DNA from: Candidatus Nanopusillus sp.
Lineage (GTDB): Archaea; Nanobdellota; Nanobdellia; Nanobdellales; Nanobdellaceae
DNA: 16,381 bases
Reading direction: 5' to 3'
Assembly: GCA_046533775.1 (NCBI GenBank)
Contig: JAWDOO010000009.1
Coordinates: 1-16,381, forward strand
Position 1 is the stretch's first letter. Each line of letters starts with the position of its first letter. The notes under the pieces were generated by a model. That model was not told where the DNA came from. It did not search any database and was given only the letters and a program-made list of their open reading frames with translations. This document shows, piece after piece, positions 1,356-14,932 of the stretch. The position numbers and the translations under genes are program-made.

Positions 1356-3800
1356 CTAGATTAAAAATATTATTGATGCAATTATTCCTACAAGTATTAA
1401 TATATAATTAATATTTTCTGATGCAATTAAAGAAGAATTTTTTGTAGGTCCATTTACAACTAAATTATATTGAGCATTTCCAATATTTTGTCCATTTACA
1501 TTAAAATTAAGTAATAATGAAGAAGATCCAATATATAATGGTAATATATTAAATTGTAATATATATGATTGATTTGGTTGTAATTGATTTATATTTATAT
1601 TATTTAATGATTGTATTGGAATTTGATTATATAATATTTCTGGTACATTTCCTAATTGTAACAAATTTATTGTAATATTATTTAATGTCATATTTCCTAT
1701 ATTTGTTATATTTAATGTTAAAATATATTCTGGATAATCTAAACTAAATTCTAAATTATTTCCAATTGGTCCATATGTAGTATTTATATTAATTGGCTGA
1801 ACATATGCTTTTAATTGAATTATACCATAATAAATATATGTTTGAGCCACATTTAAATTAAATATCTCTGTTACGCAATTAGATTGTCCATTTGTTAATG
1901 TAGAACATACAGTTATATTTCCATTATTTGAATATGGTAATTGTAAATTAAATGAATAATAATTTGTATTTACATTACTATTTGAATATACATTATTATT
2001 ATTATAATATACATTTATTGATTGTATATTTTGATTTGATCCATTTACTGAAATTGTTGTATTTATATTTTGATTTGTTATATTTAATATATTAATATCT
2101 ATAATTGGAACTGTTATTCCTGATGAAGGTATATTTAAGTTAACTGTATTTGAATTAACACAATTTCCATTATAACATCCTTGTGCATATACTGAGTAAC
2201 TTCCAGAATATGAAACAATACATAAAGAATTTATATTTTGAAATTGTGAATATGAATCATAACAATATGGAGAATTATTTACATATAATGTATAATTTTG
2301 AGCACAACCTGTTATATAAATATTATAAGAATTCTGAAAGTTTGAACTTTGCTGAGATGAGATAGAAATTTGCTGACCTATATTATATGTATATGTTGCT
2401 GATGCTGAAGATCCTGAAATTGAAGCTGTCACTGTTACTGAATATGAACCTGGAGGCATTGTTGGAGATGAATTTACATATAATGTTGTTGAACAGGAAG
2501 ATCCGCTAGTAGTACATGATGATGGATTAAGCGAACATGTTATACCAGAAGGTGCTGAACAAGAAAAAGTAACTGTTGTAGAAGCACTACTAGGATTATT
2601 TAAGTTAGCAGTTACTGTTGATGATGTTTGAGTACCTGGACAAACTGTAGAAGAACTTGATGGATTTAATTGAACTGATGAAACTGAAACTGCAGGTTGT
2701 ATAGAAATTGAAGGCATTACATCATTGGGTGGTAATGATCTTAATAAAACCCAATATAAGTATATATTATTACCTGAGCTTTGTTGTCCTATTGTTATTG
2801 GTAAACTAAATGAACCAGGTATTATTGTAGTACTTAATATTTGAGTATAATTTACTAAGAAATATGTATAACTACTAGAGAATCCTATTTCATATATTGT
2901 TGGAGCATAATTATATGTTGTACTTCCTACTCCATTAGTTCCAACAACTAAACCAAATTGACCCGAGTTTCCTGAATTTGGATATGTAAATGCAGCACCA
3001 TCATTATTACCAGCAGCTATAAGTCCCCCACCACAACCAATAAAGTATTCACACATTGAATTTGCTTCACCTACCCCTAATGCTATAATATCCCAACTTG
3101 TACCGCTTGTAGTTGGAATGGAAGCATAAATTTCCAATATATTATTTTGAATATTAAAGTTTACTGTAGTAGTAATACCCTCATTACCTCCACCCCAAGT
3201 AGAAGACGGAATAATTATATAATCTGTTGAAAAGGAAACACTATATTCCTCCCGATATACAGGAGTCCATGATGAAGGTAATGAACTCAAACCTCCAAAA
3301 TTTTGATAATAATTAAATACATCCTGTCCATTATCATACTGAGAAGTACTTAAAACTTGTATAGGCGCACCAACATATGGATAATATTGAGAATAATAAT
3401 TATCACTAGAAGATCCTATATACATAAATATTGTTATCTCTGAATTAGCATTAATTCCTTGAGGTAAATTAATCCACCATACATCACAATATGTATTACC
3501 ATAATTTAATTGACCTTCATACCATGAATATATATTTGGTGAACCTCCAGCAGTTGTGGAAAAATAAACATTTTGTCCGTTTGAATCTATTTCATTAAAT
3601 AATGTCGGATTATTTACATACGCAAAATTATTACCTATATTAATATCTCCATTACATATTGCTATATCCTGTTGGAATGGTTGTGGAGTTGCTTGAGATT
3701 GAGTATTTGTTATAGTAATAGCATACCATCCCTGAGAATACACAAACTTTGATATTAAAATAACTAGCAATCCAAATAACAATATTTTTAATAATTTCAT
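1356..3800 (-). CDS. Large secreted, C-terminally membrane-anchored surface protein (814 aa). The N-terminal half is DUF2341-like plus LamG/ConA-like lectin-type, followed by an S/T/C-rich Ig-like region and an N/Y/I-rich beta-rich region
   Basis: ORF track. The N-terminal signal peptide is MKLLKILLFGLLVILISKFVYS|QG. The pattern WYAITITN...VYF...YSWYEG...VWWINLPQGINANSEITIFMYIG matches the DUF2341 consensus as I remember it. The following DVFNYYQNFGG...SSW resembles the start of a LamG-like domain. There are many N-x-S/T sequons, and the protein ends in the hydrophobic helix YILILVGIIASIIFLI. Confidence 0.8.
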   Translation of the reverse strand: MKLLKILLFGLLVILISKFVYSQGWYAITITNTQSQATPQPFQQDIAICNGDINIGNNFAYVNNPTLFNEIDSNGQNVYFSTTAGGSPNIYSWYEGQLNYGNTYCDVWWINLPQGINANSEITIFMYIGSSSDNYYSQYYPYVGAPIQVLSTSQYDNGQDVFNYYQNFGGLSSLPSSWTPVYREEYSVSFSTDYIIIPSSTWGGGNEGITTTVNFNIQNNILEIYASIPTTSGTSWDIIALGVGEANSMCEYFIGCGGGLIAAGNNDGAAFTYPNSGNSGQFGLVVGTNGVGSTTYNYAPTIYEIGFSSSYTYFLVNYTQILSTTIIPGSFSLPITIGQQSSGNNIYLYWVLLRSLPPNDVMPSISIQPAVSVSSVQLNPSSSSTVCPGTQTSSTVTANLNNPSSASTTVTFSCSAPSGITCSLNPSSCTTSGSSCSTTLYVNSSPTMPPGSYSVTVTASISGSSASATYTYNIGQQISISSQQSSNFQNSYNIYITGCAQNYTLYVNNSPYCYDSYSQFQNINSLCIVSYSGSYSVYAQGCYNGNCVNSNTVNLNIPSSGITVPIIDINILNITNQNINTTISVNGSNQNIQSINVYYNNNNVYSNSNVNTNYYSFNLQLPYSNNGNITVCSTLTNGQSNCVTEIFNLNVAQTYIYYGIIQLKAYVQPININTTYGPIGNNLEFSLDYPEYILTLNITNIGNMTLNNITINLLQLGNVPEILYNQIPIQSLNNININQLQPNQSYILQFNILPLYIGSSSLLLNFNVNGQNIGNAQYNLVVNGPTKNSSLIASENINYILILVGIIASIIFLI

Positions 3801-5998: not shown

Positions 5999-7546
5999 AT
6001 GAAAAAAATTGTTGCAGAAGAAATACTGAAATATTTTGATAATGAAATAAAAAAGGAATCCTTTATACCAGAAATAAGGTCTAACACTGATAAATCAAAG
6101 ATTGATATAATTTATCCACTAATTGGAAAACTTGCATATGCACATATTTATTATGATAATATATCTGAAGAACTCGTATATGAATTACTAGAACCAGAAA
6201 TATCCGATGAAGATAAAATATTAATAGAAAAAATAAAACAATATATTTTGGATGAAATGTACAAAGATCCTGAAGAATTTTTAAATAAAAATAAAGAATA
6301 TGTATTGGCTAAGAAATTGGAAGAATTTGTAAATAGATATAAAATAAAAATAGAAAGAGATGTATTCATAAAATATTACTATTATTTATGGAGAGATATG
6401 TTAGGATATGAAAAAATTCATCCATTATTTTATGATATATTTATTGAGGATATTTCATGTGATGGATATGATATACCAATATATGTACATCATAATAAAT
6501 TTGGAATATTAAGGACAAATATAATTTTATCTAGGGATGAATTAGATAGATTTATAGTAAAATTAGCACAGAAGGCTGGAAAACATATATCATATGCGGA
6601 ACCAATTCTCGATGCAACATTAGATGATGGATCAAGAATAAATGCAACATACTCACAAGAAATTACTACAAATGGTCCAACATTTACAATAAGAAAGTTC
6701 AAAAAACAAATGTTATCATTAGTAGATTTGATAAAATCAAATATGTTAGATTCTGAAGTTGCTGCATATTTATGGACATTAGTAGAATATAGAGCTAATA
6801 TATTAATTGCAGGTTCCACATCTTCTGGAAAAACAACATTATTAAATTCAATTGCTCAATTTATACCACCAGAAGCAAAAGTAATATCTATTGAAGATAC
6901 AAGAGAATTACAATTATATCATGAAAATTGGATTCCTGCAACAACAAGAAGGGGTTTCTTTGTTGGAGATAAATATTATGGGGAAATTGACATGTATAGA
7001 TTATTATCAGAATCTTTTAGACAAAATCCAGATTATGTAATTGTAGGAGAAGTAAGGGGAGAAGAAACATATGTAATGTTCCAAGGAATGGCTTCTGGTC
7101 ATTCTGCATTATCTACTATACATACCGATAGCTGGAGGACATTAATAAGAAGATTAACCACAGCACCAATTAATTTAACTTTAGATCATGTTGCATTATT
7201 AGATGCAGTAGTATTTACAATGAGGGCAAGGAATATTTCTCCCTCCGCTAGAAGAGTAAGAGAAATTGTTGAAGTTGGAAAATATTTAAATGGAAAGATT
7301 GAAAATGAAACAGTTGTAAAATGGAATTTCGAAGATGATACATTTGAGAAAAAAGATTTAGGAAAATATACTGAAGAAACATTAAAATATAGAGTTGGAT
7401 CAAATATAAGTTTTAAAGATTCAATAGAAGAAAAAAAAGAAGTAATAGATTATTTAGTAAAGAAAAATATAAGAGAAAATAAAAAAATTGCTGAATATGT
7501 AAGGCTATATTATACTGATAAAGATTCTTTATTGAGAAAAATATGA
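5999..7546 (+). CDS. Archaeal type IV filament assembly ATPase (FlaI/ArlI / PilB / VirB11 superfamily, 515 aa)
   Basis: ORF track. It has Walker A in LIAGSTSSGKTTLLNS, an Asp box in VISIEDTRELQL, Walker B in PDYVIVGEVRGEE and a His box in GHSALSTIHT. Confidence 0.9.
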   Translation: MKKIVAEEILKYFDNEIKKESFIPEIRSNTDKSKIDIIYPLIGKLAYAHIYYDNISEELVYELLEPEISDEDKILIEKIKQYILDEMYKDPEEFLNKNKEYVLAKKLEEFVNRYKIKIERDVFIKYYYYLWRDMLGYEKIHPLFYDIFIEDISCDGYDIPIYVHHNKFGILRTNIILSRDELDRFIVKLAQKAGKHISYAEPILDATLDDGSRINATYSQEITTNGPTFTIRKFKKQMLSLVDLIKSNMLDSEVAAYLWTLVEYRANILIAGSTSSGKTTLLNSIAQFIPPEAKVISIEDTRELQLYHENWIPATTRRGFFVGDKYYGEIDMYRLLSESFRQNPDYVIVGEVRGEETYVMFQGMASGHSALSTIHTDSWRTLIRRLTTAPINLTLDHVALLDAVVFTMRARNISPSARRVREIVEVGKYLNGKIENETVVKWNFEDDTFEKKDLGKYTEETLKYRVGSNISFKDSIEEKKEVIDYLVKKNIRENKKIAEYVRLYYTDKDSLLRKI

Positions 7547-8376
7547 ACTTTTTAGTAAAAAAATTGTATCCATATTTTAAGGATAAAAAATATGATATAT
7601 TTTATACACAATTTAAAACATCTATTGAAGATTATATAAAAACAACATTGAAATATTCTTTCCTAACATTTATATTATCTTTTATATCTTTATCATTAAT
7701 ATTTATCTTCTATCTAAATTTCTATAATATAGTATTATTTTTCGTAAGTATTTTATTTGGAATTATTGTTGGCTTTTTAACATTTATTTATTTTTATATT
7801 TATCCATCATTAGCAAAGGCAGATTATATAAAAGATATAGAAGATAATTTACCATTTTTTGCATTATATTTTTATTCATATTCAGGTTCCCAAATGAATA
7901 TAATAGATATATTTAAATTATTAAATAAAGAAAAAAGATTTGGAGCAATAAATAAAGAAATTTCATATTTATTAATATTGATTGATAATTTTGGATATGA
8001 TATTTTATCAGCATTATTAGAATTGGCTCAAAAAACACCTTCAGAAAAATTCAAAGAATTTTTATATGGATTAATATCAGTAATTAGATCTGGAGGTTCT
8101 TTAAAAGATTTTGCAAGAATATATGCAAAGCAAAATTTAGAAGAATATGAAATACAATTAAAGGAATATAATGAAAAAGTCAATTTATGGGTAACATTAT
8201 ATGCATTTTTCTTTATAACATTTCCAATGGTATTATTAATTTTAGCATTCTTATTTTCAATTGCATCAGGAAATGCAAATATTTTAAATTCATTATTATT
8301 CTTCTTTATTTTAATTATTCCATTTTCTTATATTACATATTTATATATGATACATATATATCAACCAAAGATTTAG
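7543..8376 (+). CDS. FlaJ/TadC-like type IV filament platform membrane protein with a single T2SSF-like unit (277 aa)
   Basis: ORF track. It has an ATGA overlap with the ATPase gene. The layout is TM pair, cytoplasmic helical segment (NLPFFALYFYSYSGSQMNIIDIF...EFLYGLISVIRSGGSLKDFARIYAKQ), then TM pair, as in one T2SSF repeat. Confidence 0.75.
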   Translation: MNFLVKKLYPYFKDKKYDIFYTQFKTSIEDYIKTTLKYSFLTFILSFISLSLIFIFYLNFYNIVLFFVSILFGIIVGFLTFIYFYIYPSLAKADYIKDIEDNLPFFALYFYSYSGSQMNIIDIFKLLNKEKRFGAINKEISYLLILIDNFGYDILSALLELAQKTPSEKFKEFLYGLISVIRSGGSLKDFARIYAKQNLEEYEIQLKEYNEKVNLWVTLYAFFFITFPMVLLILAFLFSIASGNANILNSLLFFFILIIPFSYITYLYMIHIYQPKI

Positions 8377-11115: not shown

Positions 11116-11709
11116 ATGAGATCTTATTTTTATACAATAATTCTAGGAATAACATCTATATTAATATTATTTTTTATATTTTTATTAAATAATGTAAAAT
11201 TTAATAATAACTATATTTTAGAAAAAACAAATATTATAATTGATAATCAAAATATATCATTATATTTATTGAATATATATGGAAATGGATGTTATTTATA
11301 TAATATTACTGACGGATATTTTATAATAAAAAATGAAGGACCTGGAATAAATTATATAATACCATTAGCAGAATATATTAATACTACTTCATTTATATTT
11401 TGTAATCAAACATTTTATTATAATATAACAATTGAAGAATGTTTACCAATTCCATGTAATATAACATGCGAACATGGAATATTATGTCCAACGATAAAAT
11501 GTATTGAATATTCATTTTGTTCTAATATAACATATTATATTAATATAACATATCCACTAATAATTGTTAATAATGATATATTTTTATATAATAATAATGT
11601 TTATTGCTATTCAAAAAGTTATAATATAATTTATAATAAATTACCTGGAAATTATTTATACAACTTAATATATAATTTAATAAGTTCTATACCAAAAAAT
11701 ATGGTATGA
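11116..11709 (+). CDS. N-terminally anchored, Cys-rich, sequon-rich exported protein (197 aa); possible third pilin-like protein
   Basis: ORF track. The N-terminus is MRS-YFYTIILGITSILILFFIFLL, the same M-[KR]-[ST] plus hydrophobic helix layout as the two pilin-like ORFs at 5229..5983. It has nine Cys (for example CLPIPCNITCEHGILCPTIKC) and many N-x-S/T sequons. Its stop overlaps the Dph6 start (ATGA). Confidence 0.55.
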   Translation: MRSYFYTIILGITSILILFFIFLLNNVKFNNNYILEKTNIIIDNQNISLYLLNIYGNGCYLYNITDGYFIIKNEGPGINYIIPLAEYINTTSFIFCNQTFYYNITIEECLPIPCNITCEHGILCPTIKCIEYSFCSNITYYINITYPLIIVNNDIFLYNNNVYCYSKSYNIIYNKLPGNYLYNLIYNLISSIPKNMV

Positions 11710-12371
11710 AACTTGCAGTATTATATTCTGGAGGAAAAGATTCAAATTATTCATTATATGTTGCATCAAAATATCATGAAATATCTGTACTATTAAATAT
11801 AATTCCAAAAAATAATGAAAGTTATTTATATCATTATATTAATAATAATTTAACTGAATTACAATCAAAAGCATTAAATATACCTATAGAAAGATTTTAT
11901 ATAAATAATAATGAAGAAGAAACATTGCTTGAAGCATTGAAATATTTAAAGGAAAAATATAATATTAATGGAGTTGTTACTGGGGCAATTAGATCTACAT
12001 ATCAAGGATCAAGATTTCAAAGAATATGTAAAATATTAAATCTATGGTGTTTTAATCCATTATGGTTAAAAGATGAAAAAGAATATTTATATGAATTACT
12101 AAAAAGTAATTTTCAATTTATAATTGTTGGATGGTATACATATCCTTTAGATATAAATATTTTGGGAAAAGTTGTTGATGAAAATATAATAAAAAAATTA
12201 ATTGAATATAAAGAAAAATATAAGATAAATATTGCGGGAGAAGGTGGGGAATATGAAACATTTGTTTTATATCAACCATTATTTAAGAAAAGGATAATAA
12301 TAAAAGATTATGAAATAAAGGTAGAAAAAAATTATGCAGAATATATTATAAAGAATGCCTATTTAGAATGA
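11706..12371 (+). CDS. dph6: Diphthine--ammonia ligase (diphthamide synthetase, MJ0570/Dph6 family PP-loop ATPase, 221 aa)
   Basis: ORF track. It has the MKLAVLYSGGKDS PP-loop, ESYLYH, GVVTGAIRSTYQ..R and NIAGEGGEYETFVL. These align along the whole length with the M. jannaschii MJ0570-type sequence as I recall it. Confidence 0.88.
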   Translation: MKLAVLYSGGKDSNYSLYVASKYHEISVLLNIIPKNNESYLYHYINNNLTELQSKALNIPIERFYINNNEEETLLEALKYLKEKYNINGVVTGAIRSTYQGSRFQRICKILNLWCFNPLWLKDEKEYLYELLKSNFQFIIVGWYTYPLDINILGKVVDENIIKKLIEYKEKYKINIAGEGGEYETFVLYQPLFKKRIIIKDYEIKVEKNYAEYIIKNAYLE

Positions 12372-12895
12372 TTGGGATAATTCATACAAATAAAGAAGAA
12401 CTATCAAAATATGAATTTTTATATCCAATAATAAATATTTTAAAAGAATTGAATATTAATTATAAAGTTTTTTCATATAAAGATAAAATAAATGAATATT
12501 TCGAAAAAATAATAATAACAGGTACTGCAATAATGGATTTTGATTATTTAAATTATATAAAAAATTTTGAATTTATAATTGAAAATAATATAAAAACTCT
12601 TGCAATATGTTCTGGAAGCCAAATATTAACAAAATTATTAAATTATGATTTTGAAGATAAAGAATTGATTGGAAAATATTATGTAAGAATAATAAATAAA
12701 GATAAAATAATTGATAAAGATTTTGAAGCATATTTTTTAATAACAAAAATTCCAAAGATTGATGAAAAATTTTATATAATTGGAAAAGTAGAAAATATTC
12801 CTGTATTATATAAATATAGAAATATATATTTTTCATTGTTCCATCCAGAAGTTTTAAATAAAGATATAATAATTAATTTTTTAGAATATATATAG
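12368..12895 (+). CDS. Stand-alone class I glutamine amidotransferase (GuaAA-like, 175 aa)
   Basis: ORF track. It has an ATGA overlap with dph6. The nucleophile elbow is LAICSGSQIL (Cys81; C-x-G-x-Q pattern), and LFHPEV (His159, Glu161) lies near the C-terminus. The size is typical of archaeal GATase subunits. The glycine-rich SGGP segment is degenerate (ITGTA). Confidence 0.72.
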   Translation: MIGIIHTNKEELSKYEFLYPIINILKELNINYKVFSYKDKINEYFEKIIITGTAIMDFDYLNYIKNFEFIIENNIKTLAICSGSQILTKLLNYDFEDKELIGKYYVRIINKDKIIDKDFEAYFLITKIPKIDEKFYIIGKVENIPVLYKYRNIYFSLFHPEVLNKDIIINFLEYI

Positions 12896-12949
12896 CCCCT
12901 ACTAGGGTAACCTTAGATAGATGAAAAAGGTTGAGTTAGTAGGGGTACA
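12895..12949 (+). ncRNA. GC-rich hairpin followed by an ACA box: H/ACA-like sRNA candidate (or a processing/stability hairpin)
   Basis: This is the only GC-rich patch in the window. The lower stem CCCCTACTA (12896-12904) pairs perfectly with TAGTAGGGG (12937-12945), plus a G12895/T12946 wobble. A symmetric internal loop (GGGT / GAGT) follows. The upper stem AACCTT (12909-12914) pairs with AAGGTT (12927-12932), and the 12-nt loop AGATAGATGAAA contains GATGA. ACA at 12947-12949 follows the stem directly and lies 14 nt from the base of the upper stem. The pocket is small for a real pseudouridylation guide. Confidence 0.4.
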
Positions 12950-12951
12950 AA

Positions 12952-12999
12952 ATGAAGAAACCGTCCCAGGCTGAAAAATGATGAATTAAAGCTAACAGA
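12952..12999 (+). ncRNA. C/D box sRNA candidate (2'-O-methylation guide)
   Basis: The layout is C box ATGAAGA (12952-12958), a 12-nt spacer AACCGTCCCAGG, D' CTGA (12971-12974), 3 nt AAA, C' ATGATGA (12978-12984), an 11-nt spacer ATTAAAGCTAA, and a D-like CAGA (12996-12999). Box order, the 12/11-nt guides and the 3-nt D'-C' linker match archaeal C/D sRNA architecture. The terminal C and D boxes are both non-consensus at the positions that normally form the U.U pair (A/A here). Confidence 0.5.
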
Positions 13000-13006
13000 T
13001 AAAAAA

Positions 13007-14932
13007 TTATTCTTCAGCTTTTTCCTTTTCTTTTTTACCTCCCTTTCTTGATTCTATTAATACTGCAGCTATTATTATTATTGCCAATATTACTAATATC
13101 CAGAATATTAATTCTGATGAGGGCAATGATACTGAAGGTACTTGAGATACTGAATATGTTTCATTTAATGAATATAATAATTGTCCTGTTTGTTGATCTA
13201 TTATATTTACATATACTGTTACATTATTACTTTCTGCAGTTACATTCAGTGGTATTTGTTCTGTATATGTACCTCCTATTTGTATTTCTTGTTGTTCTGG
13301 ATATACTTCTCCTCCAACAGCATATGCCTGTATTAATAAGTTATATATCTGTGTTGTATTTGAACTTATTATTAAATATATTGTTGAATTTTGTCCATAT
13401 TTTAATGATATATATCCAACCAAAGATGCACTTATTGGTTGTGGTACTATTACTGTTCCATTTACATATAAATTATATGTATATGTTTGTGATATTCCAT
13501 TATAATTAAATACAAATTCTATTGGATAATATCCTGCTGTTAAATTTCCTGGAATATATATTACTACTGGTAATTGTATTACTTGATTTGGTGATAATGT
13601 TATTGTTGATAATTGTTGGAATATATTTAATTGTGGTGATTCTACTATTGGTTGTACTTGTATATTCATTGGTAAGTTAGATTCTAAATTTGCATATAAT
13701 TCTATAAATTGTCCTGGTTTTACATTAAATGTATTTGTATATACACTTAATACATTTACCGGTTGTATATTTTGTTCATCTACTGTTATTGTATATTTAT
13801 ATTGATATACTTCTACTCCATTTTGATATACATATAATATTATTGTATAATATCCTGGCTGTAATCCTACTGTATTTAATGGTAATATTACCTCTCCCTG
13901 AGAACCTGGAGGTATTATTTGTGAACCTTGTAAATTATATATTAAATCTCCATATTGATCATATAATAACATTTGAACTGTTGCATTTACTGTTTGATAA
14001 CCTGGATTATTTATTAATACTTCTACATTATATATAGAATTTATTAAATTATTCAATGAATTAAAGTTTGGTGATACTGAAATTACTTGTATATTTTGTC
14101 CATTTTGATTATTTGATATATAGAATGATTGTTCTGTTTGTTGTGTCAATACTTGTCCATTAGATAGTACAACATTCAATTGTTCTAATACATACATTTC
14201 TCCTTGTACATTTTCTAAATAATAGTTTGGTATATTTACAGTTAATAAATTTTCTCCTGGTTGTAAATTTACATTTTCTTGTGTTTGGTATATAATATTT
14301 CCTTGAGAATTATATAATGTTAATATTAATGTAGAAGACTGTATATTTGTTTCAACATTTTGTAAATATACTACTGATTGTATATTTATTCCATATTGTT
14401 CTGCTTGTTGTTGTGAAATTGCTTCTGGTAATTGTACTAATGATAATGTCAAATTATATGGTACAAATGTTAAATTATATGTTTGATTTGCTGTTACATA
14501 TTCTAAACCTGATGAATATAATAATGTTACATTTGCCTGTACTGTGAAATTATAATATTGTTCTACTGAACATCCATAATATGTACATGAACTTGTTGAA
14601 CTATACTGTTGTACTAAATTTTCTAATTCTAAAGGATTTACTGATACCTGATATATGTTTAATCCTGTACATACTGATATAGGTTCATAATATTGATATA
14701 TTAATTGTCCATTTGGTGCATATATATTAAAGTACAAATCTGCCTCTTCCGGAGTTTCATTTACTCCATATAACTTTATTATAAATGTTAAATTATTTGC
14801 TGCATTTGCTAATATTGTTTGTGTTTGTGGTTCTATTATTATTTGTTGTGAATATACTCCCAATCCTAATAATACTAATCCTATTAAAAAACTAAACAAT
14901 CTTCTTATTGTTACTACTACTTTGTTATCCAT
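13007..14932 (-). CDS. Large secreted, C-terminally anchored adhesin-like surface protein with diverged repeated beta-sandwich (CARDB/Ig-like) modules (641 aa)
   Basis: ORF track. The signal peptide is RRLFSFLIGLVLLGLGVYS|QQ. A recurring module signature appears four times: NIYAPNGQLIYQY, TLYNSQGNIIYQT, LLYDQYGDLIYNL and NIIDQQTGQLLYSL, each followed by a PG-containing strand. There are at least a dozen N-x-S/T sequons. The C-terminus is a TM helix (LIFWILVILAIIIIAAVLI) plus a basic tail (ESRKGGKKEKEKAEE). Confidence 0.8.
   Translation of the reverse strand: MDNKVVVTIRRLFSFLIGLVLLGLGVYSQQIIIEPQTQTILANAANNLTFIIKLYGVNETPEEADLYFNIYAPNGQLIYQYYEPISVCTGLNIYQVSVNPLELENLVQQYSSTSSCTYYGCSVEQYYNFTVQANVTLLYSSGLEYVTANQTYNLTFVPYNLTLSLVQLPEAISQQQAEQYGINIQSVVYLQNVETNIQSSTLILTLYNSQGNIIYQTQENVNLQPGENLLTVNIPNYYLENVQGEMYVLEQLNVVLSNGQVLTQQTEQSFYISNNQNGQNIQVISVSPNFNSLNNLINSIYNVEVLINNPGYQTVNATVQMLLYDQYGDLIYNLQGSQIIPPGSQGEVILPLNTVGLQPGYYTIILYVYQNGVEVYQYKYTITVDEQNIQPVNVLSVYTNTFNVKPGQFIELYANLESNLPMNIQVQPIVESPQLNIFQQLSTITLSPNQVIQLPVVIYIPGNLTAGYYPIEFVFNYNGISQTYTYNLYVNGTVIVPQPISASLVGYISLKYGQNSTIYLIISSNTTQIYNLLIQAYAVGGEVYPEQQEIQIGGTYTEQIPLNVTAESNNVTVYVNIIDQQTGQLLYSLNETYSVSQVPSVSLPSSELIFWILVILAIIIIAAVLIESRKGGKKEKEKAEE

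Follow-up and report, generated by a model that had tools for sequence, protein, structure and literature searches.

The stretch analysed here, a window of 16,381 nucleotides (nt) covering positions 1 to 16,381 of contig JAWDOO010000009.1 of Candidatus Nanopusillus sp., contains in an intergenic gap a hairpin with an ACA box (12895-12949) that is followed, after a spacer of 2 nt, by a C/D box small RNA (sRNA, 12952-12999). Both lie on the plus strand. A sequence-only reading of this DNA had proposed that they are joined head-to-tail, and the arrangement is conserved in five nanoarchaeal lineages, with all the hairpin and C/D elements of the window at the positions that this reading had assigned to them. 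The window has a G+C content of 23.5% and encodes archaeal proteins such as aEF-2, RNase J, Dph6 and an NFACT-domain protein. The open reading frame (ORF) immediately upstream of the element codes for an amidotransferase (GATase) of 175 aa and terminates at 12895. At the amino acid level it is 93-97% identical to homologues in Candidatus Nanobsidianus or Nanopusillus genomes, 78% to that of Nanoarchaeota strain YN1, 75-77% to those of a Nanopusillaceae metagenome-assembled genome and two metagenomic contigs, 69% to that of Nanobdella aerobiophila and 58% to those of two further contigs (our locus L017 is among the relatives at 58%). Judging from these homologues, the window is assigned to Nanopusillus/Nanobsidianus, a thermophilic nanoarchaeon. 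The GATase gene belongs to a row of three ORFs, P197-dph6-GATase (11116-11709, 11706-12371 and 12368-12895), each overlapping the next by 4 nt, which is the arrangement of an operon. On the other side, a convergent ORF of 641 aa (13007-14932, minus strand) bounds the gap, which thus measures the 111 nt (12896-13006) counted before. The description of the element as the only GC-rich island of the window, on the other hand, had to be abandoned. Stretches of 80-105 nt at this place rank second to third (GC 0.40-0.45), behind or level with coding stretches, and what can be said is that this is the sole G+C-rich stretch located in an intergenic gap, the other gaps having had no separate comparison.

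The downstream half has the complete layout of an archaeal C/D box sRNA. The C box AUGAAGA (12952-12958) is followed by a D' guide of 12 nt, AACCGUCCCAGG (12959-12970), the D' box CUGA (12971-12974), an AAA linker, the C' box AUGAUGA (12978-12984), a D guide of 11 nt, AUUAAAGCUAA (12985-12995), and the D box CAGA (12996-12999). The 3' flank UAAAAAAUUA (13000-13009) corresponds on the minus strand to the oligo-T run that follows where the 641-aa ORF stops. A relaxed regular expression for the C/D layout matched once in the window and never in 300 dinucleotide-preserving shuffles. The D' box, linker and C' box, which form a canonical K-loop, are invariant in 26 haplotypes of the window's own clade, as is the C box, and the whole segment from C box through C' box (33 nt) has no variable site among them. 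Guide spacers of 12 nt (D') and 11 nt (D) in the window compare with 12-14 nt in the relatives. Rfam gave no match at gathering thresholds for the window and 11 related loci, and the sub-threshold matches, of 10-17 bits, were only to archaeal C/D families (snoPyro_CD, sR52 and sR9 among them). The missing match weighs little, since the families concerned are genus-specific. A scan of viral contigs for the sRNA returned no matches.

The terminal boxes of this sRNA, AUGAAGA and CAGA, retain both GA dinucleotides of the kink-turn. They carry A/A at position 5 of the C box and position 2 of the D box, two positions that face each other beside the tandem G.A pairs (3b.3n in the standard nomenclature). 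In the window these are positions 12956 and 12997. The two covary perfectly among lineages, being A/A in the window clade, in Nanobdella and in both sRNAs of L017, and G/U in YN1 and in the related loci L014, L018 and L019, which gives direct support for the kink-turn fold. The combination of (A/G)UGAAGA with CAGA is found in 8 of the 26 RNA-seq-verified sRNAs of Nanoarchaeum equitans, including the most abundant one (PMC3491384). The sequence-only reading was therefore right that the A/A combination leaves the GA pairs of the kink-turn intact, but wrong in treating it as an oddity: with this frequency in N. equitans and the covariation, AUGAAGA/CAGA is a normal, phylum-typical nanoarchaeal variant of the kink-turn and no defect.

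For the targets of the guides we used the E. coli rRNAs as numbered reference and the prediction published for N. equitans as a second proxy. The D' guides of the window and its relatives, with the exception of Nanobdella, have their best site in E. coli rRNA at 23S 2247-2258, ACUGGGGCGGUC. The guide of the window forms 10 contiguous pairs with 2248-2257, one G.U included, and the fifth pair from the D' box (N+5), where the guide has C12966, falls on G2251. The guide is invariant within the clade and its core GUCCCAG is kept in the deeper lineages, the versions found being AACCGUCCCAGG, (A/U)ACCGUCCCAGU, UGCCAUGUCCCAGU and AGCUGUCCCAGU. E. coli itself carries Gm2251, produced by a protein enzyme. 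In N. equitans, sRNA4 (8,800 reads) has the D' guide GGCUGUCCCAGG, predicted to act on 23S-2330 in GCUGGmGGCGGCA (Randau 2012, PMC3491384), and the equivalent of G2251 is a predicted C/D target in three archaea (Dennis et al., PMC4644070). Going by these matches, the D' guide selects the G of the P-loop of 23S rRNA that is equivalent to E. coli G2251. Layout, covariation, conservation and guide-target match taken together confirm the earlier view of the downstream half: as far as can be judged from comparative evidence, 12952-12999 is a genuine archaeal C/D box sRNA. It is a new member of a known C/D family, with a known orthologue (N. equitans sRNA4).

The outcome was different for the second guide. 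The sequence-only reading had called for a search for rRNA or tRNA complements of both guides. The one for the D' guide is clear, at the P-loop, and the D guide AUUAAAGCUAA has no convincing match in E. coli rRNA. This guide is one base short, A/U-rich and polymorphic at 4 of its 11 positions among near-identical genomes, and it is probably decaying in the window clade. The D guide of Nanobdella, AAGGAGUAGCUA, with its CAGA (L012:3618-3633), is identical at 11 of 12 positions to AAGGAGUAGCUG plus CAGA of N. equitans sRNA14, for which no target is predicted (PMC3491384), and to us AUUAAAGCUAA looks like a decayed copy of this Nanobdella/sRNA14-type guide. Relatives of the YN1 type carry the D guide GAGAGACGA in the same sRNA as the P-loop guide. 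In L017, with its GATase identity of 58%, the corresponding gap holds a tandem of two C/D sRNAs (L017:835-975) and no hairpin. There the first sRNA has the P-loop D' guide, and a D guide of the YN1 type (AAGAGAGACGAG) is found in the second, separate one. The different combinations of guides across lineages imply that halves of sRNAs have been exchanged by fusion or recombination, as described for Pyrobaculum.

The upstream half starts within the stop codon of the GATase gene. Its lower stem pairs 12895-12904 with 12937-12946, that is, G12895.U12946 and then C12896-A12904 with U12937-G12945, giving 10 bp (11 with the wobble G12905.U12936) as compared to 9-11 bp in relatives. G12895, the last base of the TAG stop, makes a G.U pair, which becomes A-U in relatives with a TAA stop. 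Above the stem, at the position of the H/ACA pocket, there is an internal loop with GGGU as its 5' strand (12905-12908) and GAGU as its 3' strand (12933-12936), both invariant in the 11 aligned sequences. The upper stem that follows, AACCUU (12909-12914) with AAGGUU (12927-12932), is invariant except for the bottom pair (A-U, G.U or A.A). The apex (12915-12926) is a K-loop with A12915.A12925 as the 3n.3b pair, sheared G12916.A12924 and A12917.G12923, a loop of U12918-U12922 and an extra bulged A12926. The GAUGA that had been seen within the loop lies at 12920-12924. The 5' side of the K-loop reads N-G-A and is followed by a linker of 3-4 nt (UAG, UAA, UGG, UUA, UUU, UUAU, UUUG or UCA) and then by AUGAAAA, with the GA dinucleotides and AUGAAAA invariant. 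The 3n base, opposite the first A past the 3' GA, varies (A, G or C), and the extra 3'-side A of the window clade pairs in L006 and L008 with a U inserted on the 5' side. Directly 3' of the lower stem comes the ACA box (12947-12949), 14 nt past the last A-U pair of the upper stem, and then the spacer to the C box (12950-12951), which has the sequence AA, UA or AG.

The predicted fold of this hairpin reaches -23.4 kcal/mol (z = -4.1), a value equalled by none of 200 shuffles, and in six lineages the z-scores range from -2.6 to -5.0. The 17 proposed pairs are standard in 96.7% of the cells of the 11-sequence alignment, and sliding the partners by 1-3 columns lowers this figure to 32-63%. Compensatory substitutions in the stems had been named as something to look for in relatives, and two pairs of the lower stem (12902-12939 and 12903-12938) do switch between C-G and U-A by double changes. 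A descriptor of the K-loop hairpin, applied to 86 kb on both strands, gave one match per hairpin locus and four others. A hairpin in DNA could also be an inverted repeat acting at the DNA level or a structure arisen by chance, with no function as RNA, and the minus strand does fold as well (z = -2.5). However, G.U pairs occur at six positions and would be A.C mismatches on the opposite strand, which indicates that it is the plus-strand RNA that is under selection. The loop motif is asymmetric and conserved, and with a covariance model built for the hairpin the plus strand of intact copies obtains 75-87 bits (that of a degraded one, L041, 67 bits) and the minus strand only 11-19 bits. We regard a DNA-level or chance origin as very improbable. 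We also considered that the hairpin might be a folded-up C/D sRNA and discarded the idea, there being no C/D box properly spaced from the loop motifs. By these comparisons, 12895-12946 is a real plus-strand RNA structure with a K-loop at its apex, and the upstream half is what the sequence-only reading had described, an ACA-tailed hairpin with a kink-turn-type loop.

A way to approach the meaning of this hairpin is to look at where it occurs. A scan of metagenomes recovered ~25 true copies, all from the window clade and each with the sRNA downstream of it, and no hairpin on its own; the remaining ~28 matches were due to chance and came from unrelated high-GC contigs. When 178 kb of nanoarchaeal DNA were searched with the covariance model of the hairpin, a second copy did not turn up (a match of 14 bits in L049/L041 was set aside because it falls within a coding region). 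The sRNA, in turn, can be found alone, and in L017 the P-loop sRNA comes directly after the stop codon, with no hairpin and no ACA. The ACA is present wherever the hairpin is intact and is absent from the hairpin-less copies of the sRNA in L017 and N. equitans, and therefore does not belong to the flank of the sRNA itself. One haplotype of the window clade, L001/L041, recovered independently from ENA and JGI assemblies and with an amidotransferase identical to that of the window, has five disruptive changes in its hairpin (L001:3018-3069): two deletions in the stems, a G to A and a C to U change and the loss of the first A of the ACA. Its fold amounts to -8.8 kcal/mol (z = -0.7) and its C/D core is unchanged. 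In this sublineage the hairpin appears to be decaying. Judged by this distribution, the hairpin is a lineage-specific add-on under selection that is real but weaker.

The general plan of the hairpin is that of an H/ACA sRNA. In the archaeal model the GA stem comprises 10 layers and the lower stem ~9 bp, the ANA box lies at 14-15 nt from the closing pair, and productive pockets have 5-8 nt in the 5' strand and 5-6 nt in the 3' strand (Toffano-Nioche 2015, PMC4652768). The single-hairpin H/ACA sRNAs of the Pyrococcus Pf9/Pab160 type share with our hairpin the lower stem of ~9-10 bp, the adjacent ACA and the K-loop on the upper stem. Upper stem and non-canonical layers together number 9-10 here, as against 10 in the canonical case: counting a U.G closing pair there are 10 layers plus the bulged A, followed by 13 nt to the ACA, and leaving it out there are 9 layers and 14 nt. 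On the 3' strand, the distance from the first G.A pair to the base before the ACA (G12923-U12946) is 24 nt here, 23 in the relatives and 24-25 in the canonical 10/5/9 and 10/6/9 folds (PMC4652768), so that both presumed protein anchors appear to be correctly spaced. The difference from the Pf9/Pab160 type, besides the fusion to a C/D sRNA, lies in the pocket. Instead of 5-8 and 5-6 nt, the internal loop of the window is 2x2 by minimum free energy (MFE) and 4x4 at most; among the relatives it measures 4x3 in two (YN1, L014) and 5x4 in three (Nanobdella, L018, L019). These sizes agree with the earlier judgement that a standard pseudouridylation guide would need a larger pocket, and the hairpin is probably no such guide in the window clade. 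The upper stem also resembles that of hairpin 1 in the H/ACA sRNA of N. equitans, but only in ACCU/AGGU beside the GA pairs, which is too short for a claim of homology.

The hairpin might nevertheless work as a minimal H/ACA guide, in which Cbf5-Nop10-Gar1-L7Ae would assemble on it and GGGU and GAGU, helped by breathing pairs, would hold a target of the type 5'-ACUC-UN-ACCC-3'. The H/ACA scaffold is complete (lower stem, ACA, K-loop and the 24-nt spacing), the two loop strands stay invariant amid a surrounding stem that changes, and the 5x4 loop of Nanobdella, L018 and L019 is one base below the smallest canonical pocket. In addition, sR435 of S. islandicus functions with guide-target duplexes of 8-11 bp at 78 C (PMC11077068). 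With sR435 considered, a 4+4 pocket falls at the very edge of known guide-target duplexes. But the loop of the window clade is smaller still in its MFE form, no single extended target would suit all the changes that flank the pocket (U or A at column 48), E. coli rRNA holds no match and the hairpin has decayed in L001/L041. Nanoarchaeal 23S genes were sought in the metagenomes with a 27-mer of the peptidyl-transferase centre derived from N. equitans, which had no matches, and the target search covers E. coli rRNA. Altogether, we think it unlikely that the hairpin is a working guide.

The other conspicuous property of the element is the junction, since the spacer between ACA and C box is 2 nt in all five lineages with the hairpin. 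This could mean that the hairpin is an element of processing or stability only, an L7Ae-capped stem-loop that would end the mRNA and/or block exonucleases and set the 5' end of the sRNA, with no part for Cbf5. Its position, beginning at the stop codon and ending just ahead of the C box, fits well with such a role, as do the want of a usable pocket and the constant company of the sRNA, and in N. equitans 5' ends of sRNAs are made by processing an upstream tRNA. However, a plain stabilising hairpin requires neither a conserved ACA nor a K-loop 24 nt away from it, and the sRNA matures without any hairpin in L017 and N. equitans. We see here a possibility to be kept in mind, but a doubtful one.

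Alternatively, the mature RNA might stay composite, a molecule of ~105 nt carrying H/ACA- and C/D-type proteins together, the counterpart of the eukaryotic small Cajal body-specific RNAs (scaRNAs). In every lineage the spacing is 2 nt, whereas other lengths differ. Besides, a helix could close the whole unit: 12874-12883, at the end of the GATase coding sequence, can form 10 bp of A/U pairs with 13000-13009, the bases after the D box, and complementarity of 9-10 bp between the flanks is found in 4 of 6 lineages (the window, and 9 bp in YN1, L014 and L018; p ~0.02-0.05 each). On the other side, the helix consists of A/U pairs only, it is absent in Nanobdella and L019, and RNAalifold did not predict it. 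We can only tentatively propose that it closes the unit, chance complementarity in A/U-rich DNA being the other explanation. Moreover, 2 nt would leave little room for the PUA domain of Cbf5 beside the kink-turn complex of the C/D sRNA. That the RNA remains in one piece strikes us as rather unlikely, and less likely still is a specific version in which the intact ~105-nt unit would bind L7Ae/Cbf5/Nop10 as well as L7Ae/Nop5/fibrillarin and possibly serve for enzyme delivery or as a chaperone at the peptidyl-transferase region of 23S rRNA. What speaks for a scaRNA-like composite particle is the genomic linkage.

Combining the structure, conservation, covariation, guide-target match and linkage observed with the co-transcription, processing and protein binding that we infer, we favour, with moderate confidence, a co-transcribed tandem of an H/ACA-like, putatively L7Ae-binding module and a P-loop methylation guide. 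The 2 nt between the modules leave no room for a second promoter, which points to a single precursor; this would originate by read-through from the P197-dph6-GATase operon or be initiated within the 3' end of the GATase gene. In the downstream module (12950-13001), L7Ae, Nop5 and fibrillarin would sit on the terminal kink-turn and the internal K-loop, and the D' guide would pair with the P-loop CUGGGGCGGU, leading to 2'-O-methylation of its second G (equivalent to E. coli G2251). The upstream module (12895-12949) would provide a scaffold of 10-bp lower stem, ACA, 7-bp upper stem and K-loop with a shrunken pocket. Its K-loop would most likely be bound by L7Ae, and Cbf5-Nop10 might attach to the stem and the ACA. 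This last step is reasonable in view of the precedent of S. islandicus sR666 (see below) and because an H/ACA sRNA is expressed in N. equitans, which also has a gene of COG0130 (TruB/Cbf5 type). The resulting stable particle would delimit the sRNA on its 5' side and the upstream mRNA at its 3' end.

Several observations fit this tandem explanation poorly. The distance from the closing pair to the ACA is 13-14 nt, as compared to 14-15 nt in canonical H/ACA RNAs, and the pocket is smaller than the 5-6 nt of the 3' strand in known productive archaeal guides. The search of E. coli rRNA for the pocket target 5'-ACUC-UN-ACCC-3', with up to two wobbles allowed, found none. The invariance of the upper-stem sequence is not accounted for by a purely structural role. 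No Rfam family reached the threshold, and no H/ACA family appeared even at E <= 10. Finally, L017 and N. equitans have the sRNA and no hairpin, and L001/L041 has it next to a degraded one, so that any role that the hairpin may have for the sRNA is dispensable.

Some features of the surroundings deserve a brief description. The last ~55 nt of the GATase gene (12840-12895) are near-identical in DNA even in YN1. They include TTTAAA (12853-12858), the nanoarchaeal box A consensus, within the 3' end of GATase. We did not accept it as promoter evidence, given that it encodes the conserved VLNK and is kept in relatives that do not have the sRNA, and it counts neither way. The 641-aa ORF (13007-14932, minus strand) has no Pfam match, and neither has an ORF of 814 aa at 1356-3800 on the same strand; a homologue of the former lies convergent beside the sRNA locus also in Nanobdella and L014. 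At 5999-8376, neighbouring genes for a T2SSE-type ATPase and a T2SSF-type membrane protein suggest a type IV pilus or archaellum-like assembly in this reduced genome.

The closest known relative of the downstream module is N. equitans sRNA4 (90898-90954, PMC3491384), which has the same D' guide core, GUCCCAGG, the same predicted target G in the P-loop and the same C/D'/C'/D layout, and which likewise lies between protein genes. It differs in its canonical AUGAUGA/CUGA boxes, its D guide (23S-2587) and its neighbour genes, and its 40-nt upstream flank has neither hairpin nor ACA. The C/D half would represent a guided methylation of the P-loop G that has been kept across Nanoarchaeota despite their extreme genome reduction. 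Co-transcription of C/D sRNAs with one another and with tRNAs has been described in archaea, and in the tRNA-C/D sRNA dicistrons of N. equitans (sRNA3, sRNA8) it is the processing of the upstream tRNA that sets the 5' end of the sRNA (PMC3491384). The unit of the window resembles these dicistrons in having a structured RNA immediately upstream of a C/D sRNA. It is nevertheless not one of them, which was ruled out when a tRNA search of the window detected none: in place of the tRNA stands an H/ACA-like K-loop hairpin, which has neither a T-arm nor acceptor features and is therefore not expected to be cut by RNase Z.

The half that is new to us is the upstream one, an H/ACA-shaped hairpin capped by a K-loop, whose pocket is vestigial, which stands 2 nt ahead of a C/D sRNA and which has been conserved in several genera. 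In the literature that we searched, no archaeal composite of H/ACA and C/D and no small RNAs of Nanopusillus were found. The eukaryotic composite scaRNAs (U85 and U87 type) have H/ACA and C/D domains on one transcript, both of them working guides that stay together in the mature RNA, and Cajal-body signals. The unit of the window differs from them in its vestigial pocket and in the order and junction of its parts, and it is known here as a genomic linkage; if the RNA stays whole, it would be a prokaryotic analogue of scaRNAs. Its relatives form an evolutionary series in which the sRNA occurs by itself, with the hairpin, or with a hairpin in decay. The best precedent for an H/ACA-like particle with no pocket is sR666 of S. 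islandicus (PMC11077068). This hairpin has a kink-turn but lacks guide strands; even so, it is recovered together with Cbf5 on purification, and in vitro both L7Ae and Cbf5-Nop10 bind to it. It has in common with our hairpin the kink-turn motif and the lack of single strands that could hold a substrate; it comes from a different phylum and has no reported link to a C/D sRNA, and the likeness considered here is one of structure. If Cbf5 does bind the nanoarchaeal hairpin, this would be the second pocket-less H/ACA-like particle after sR666, and a simple system in which to approach the role of such particles.

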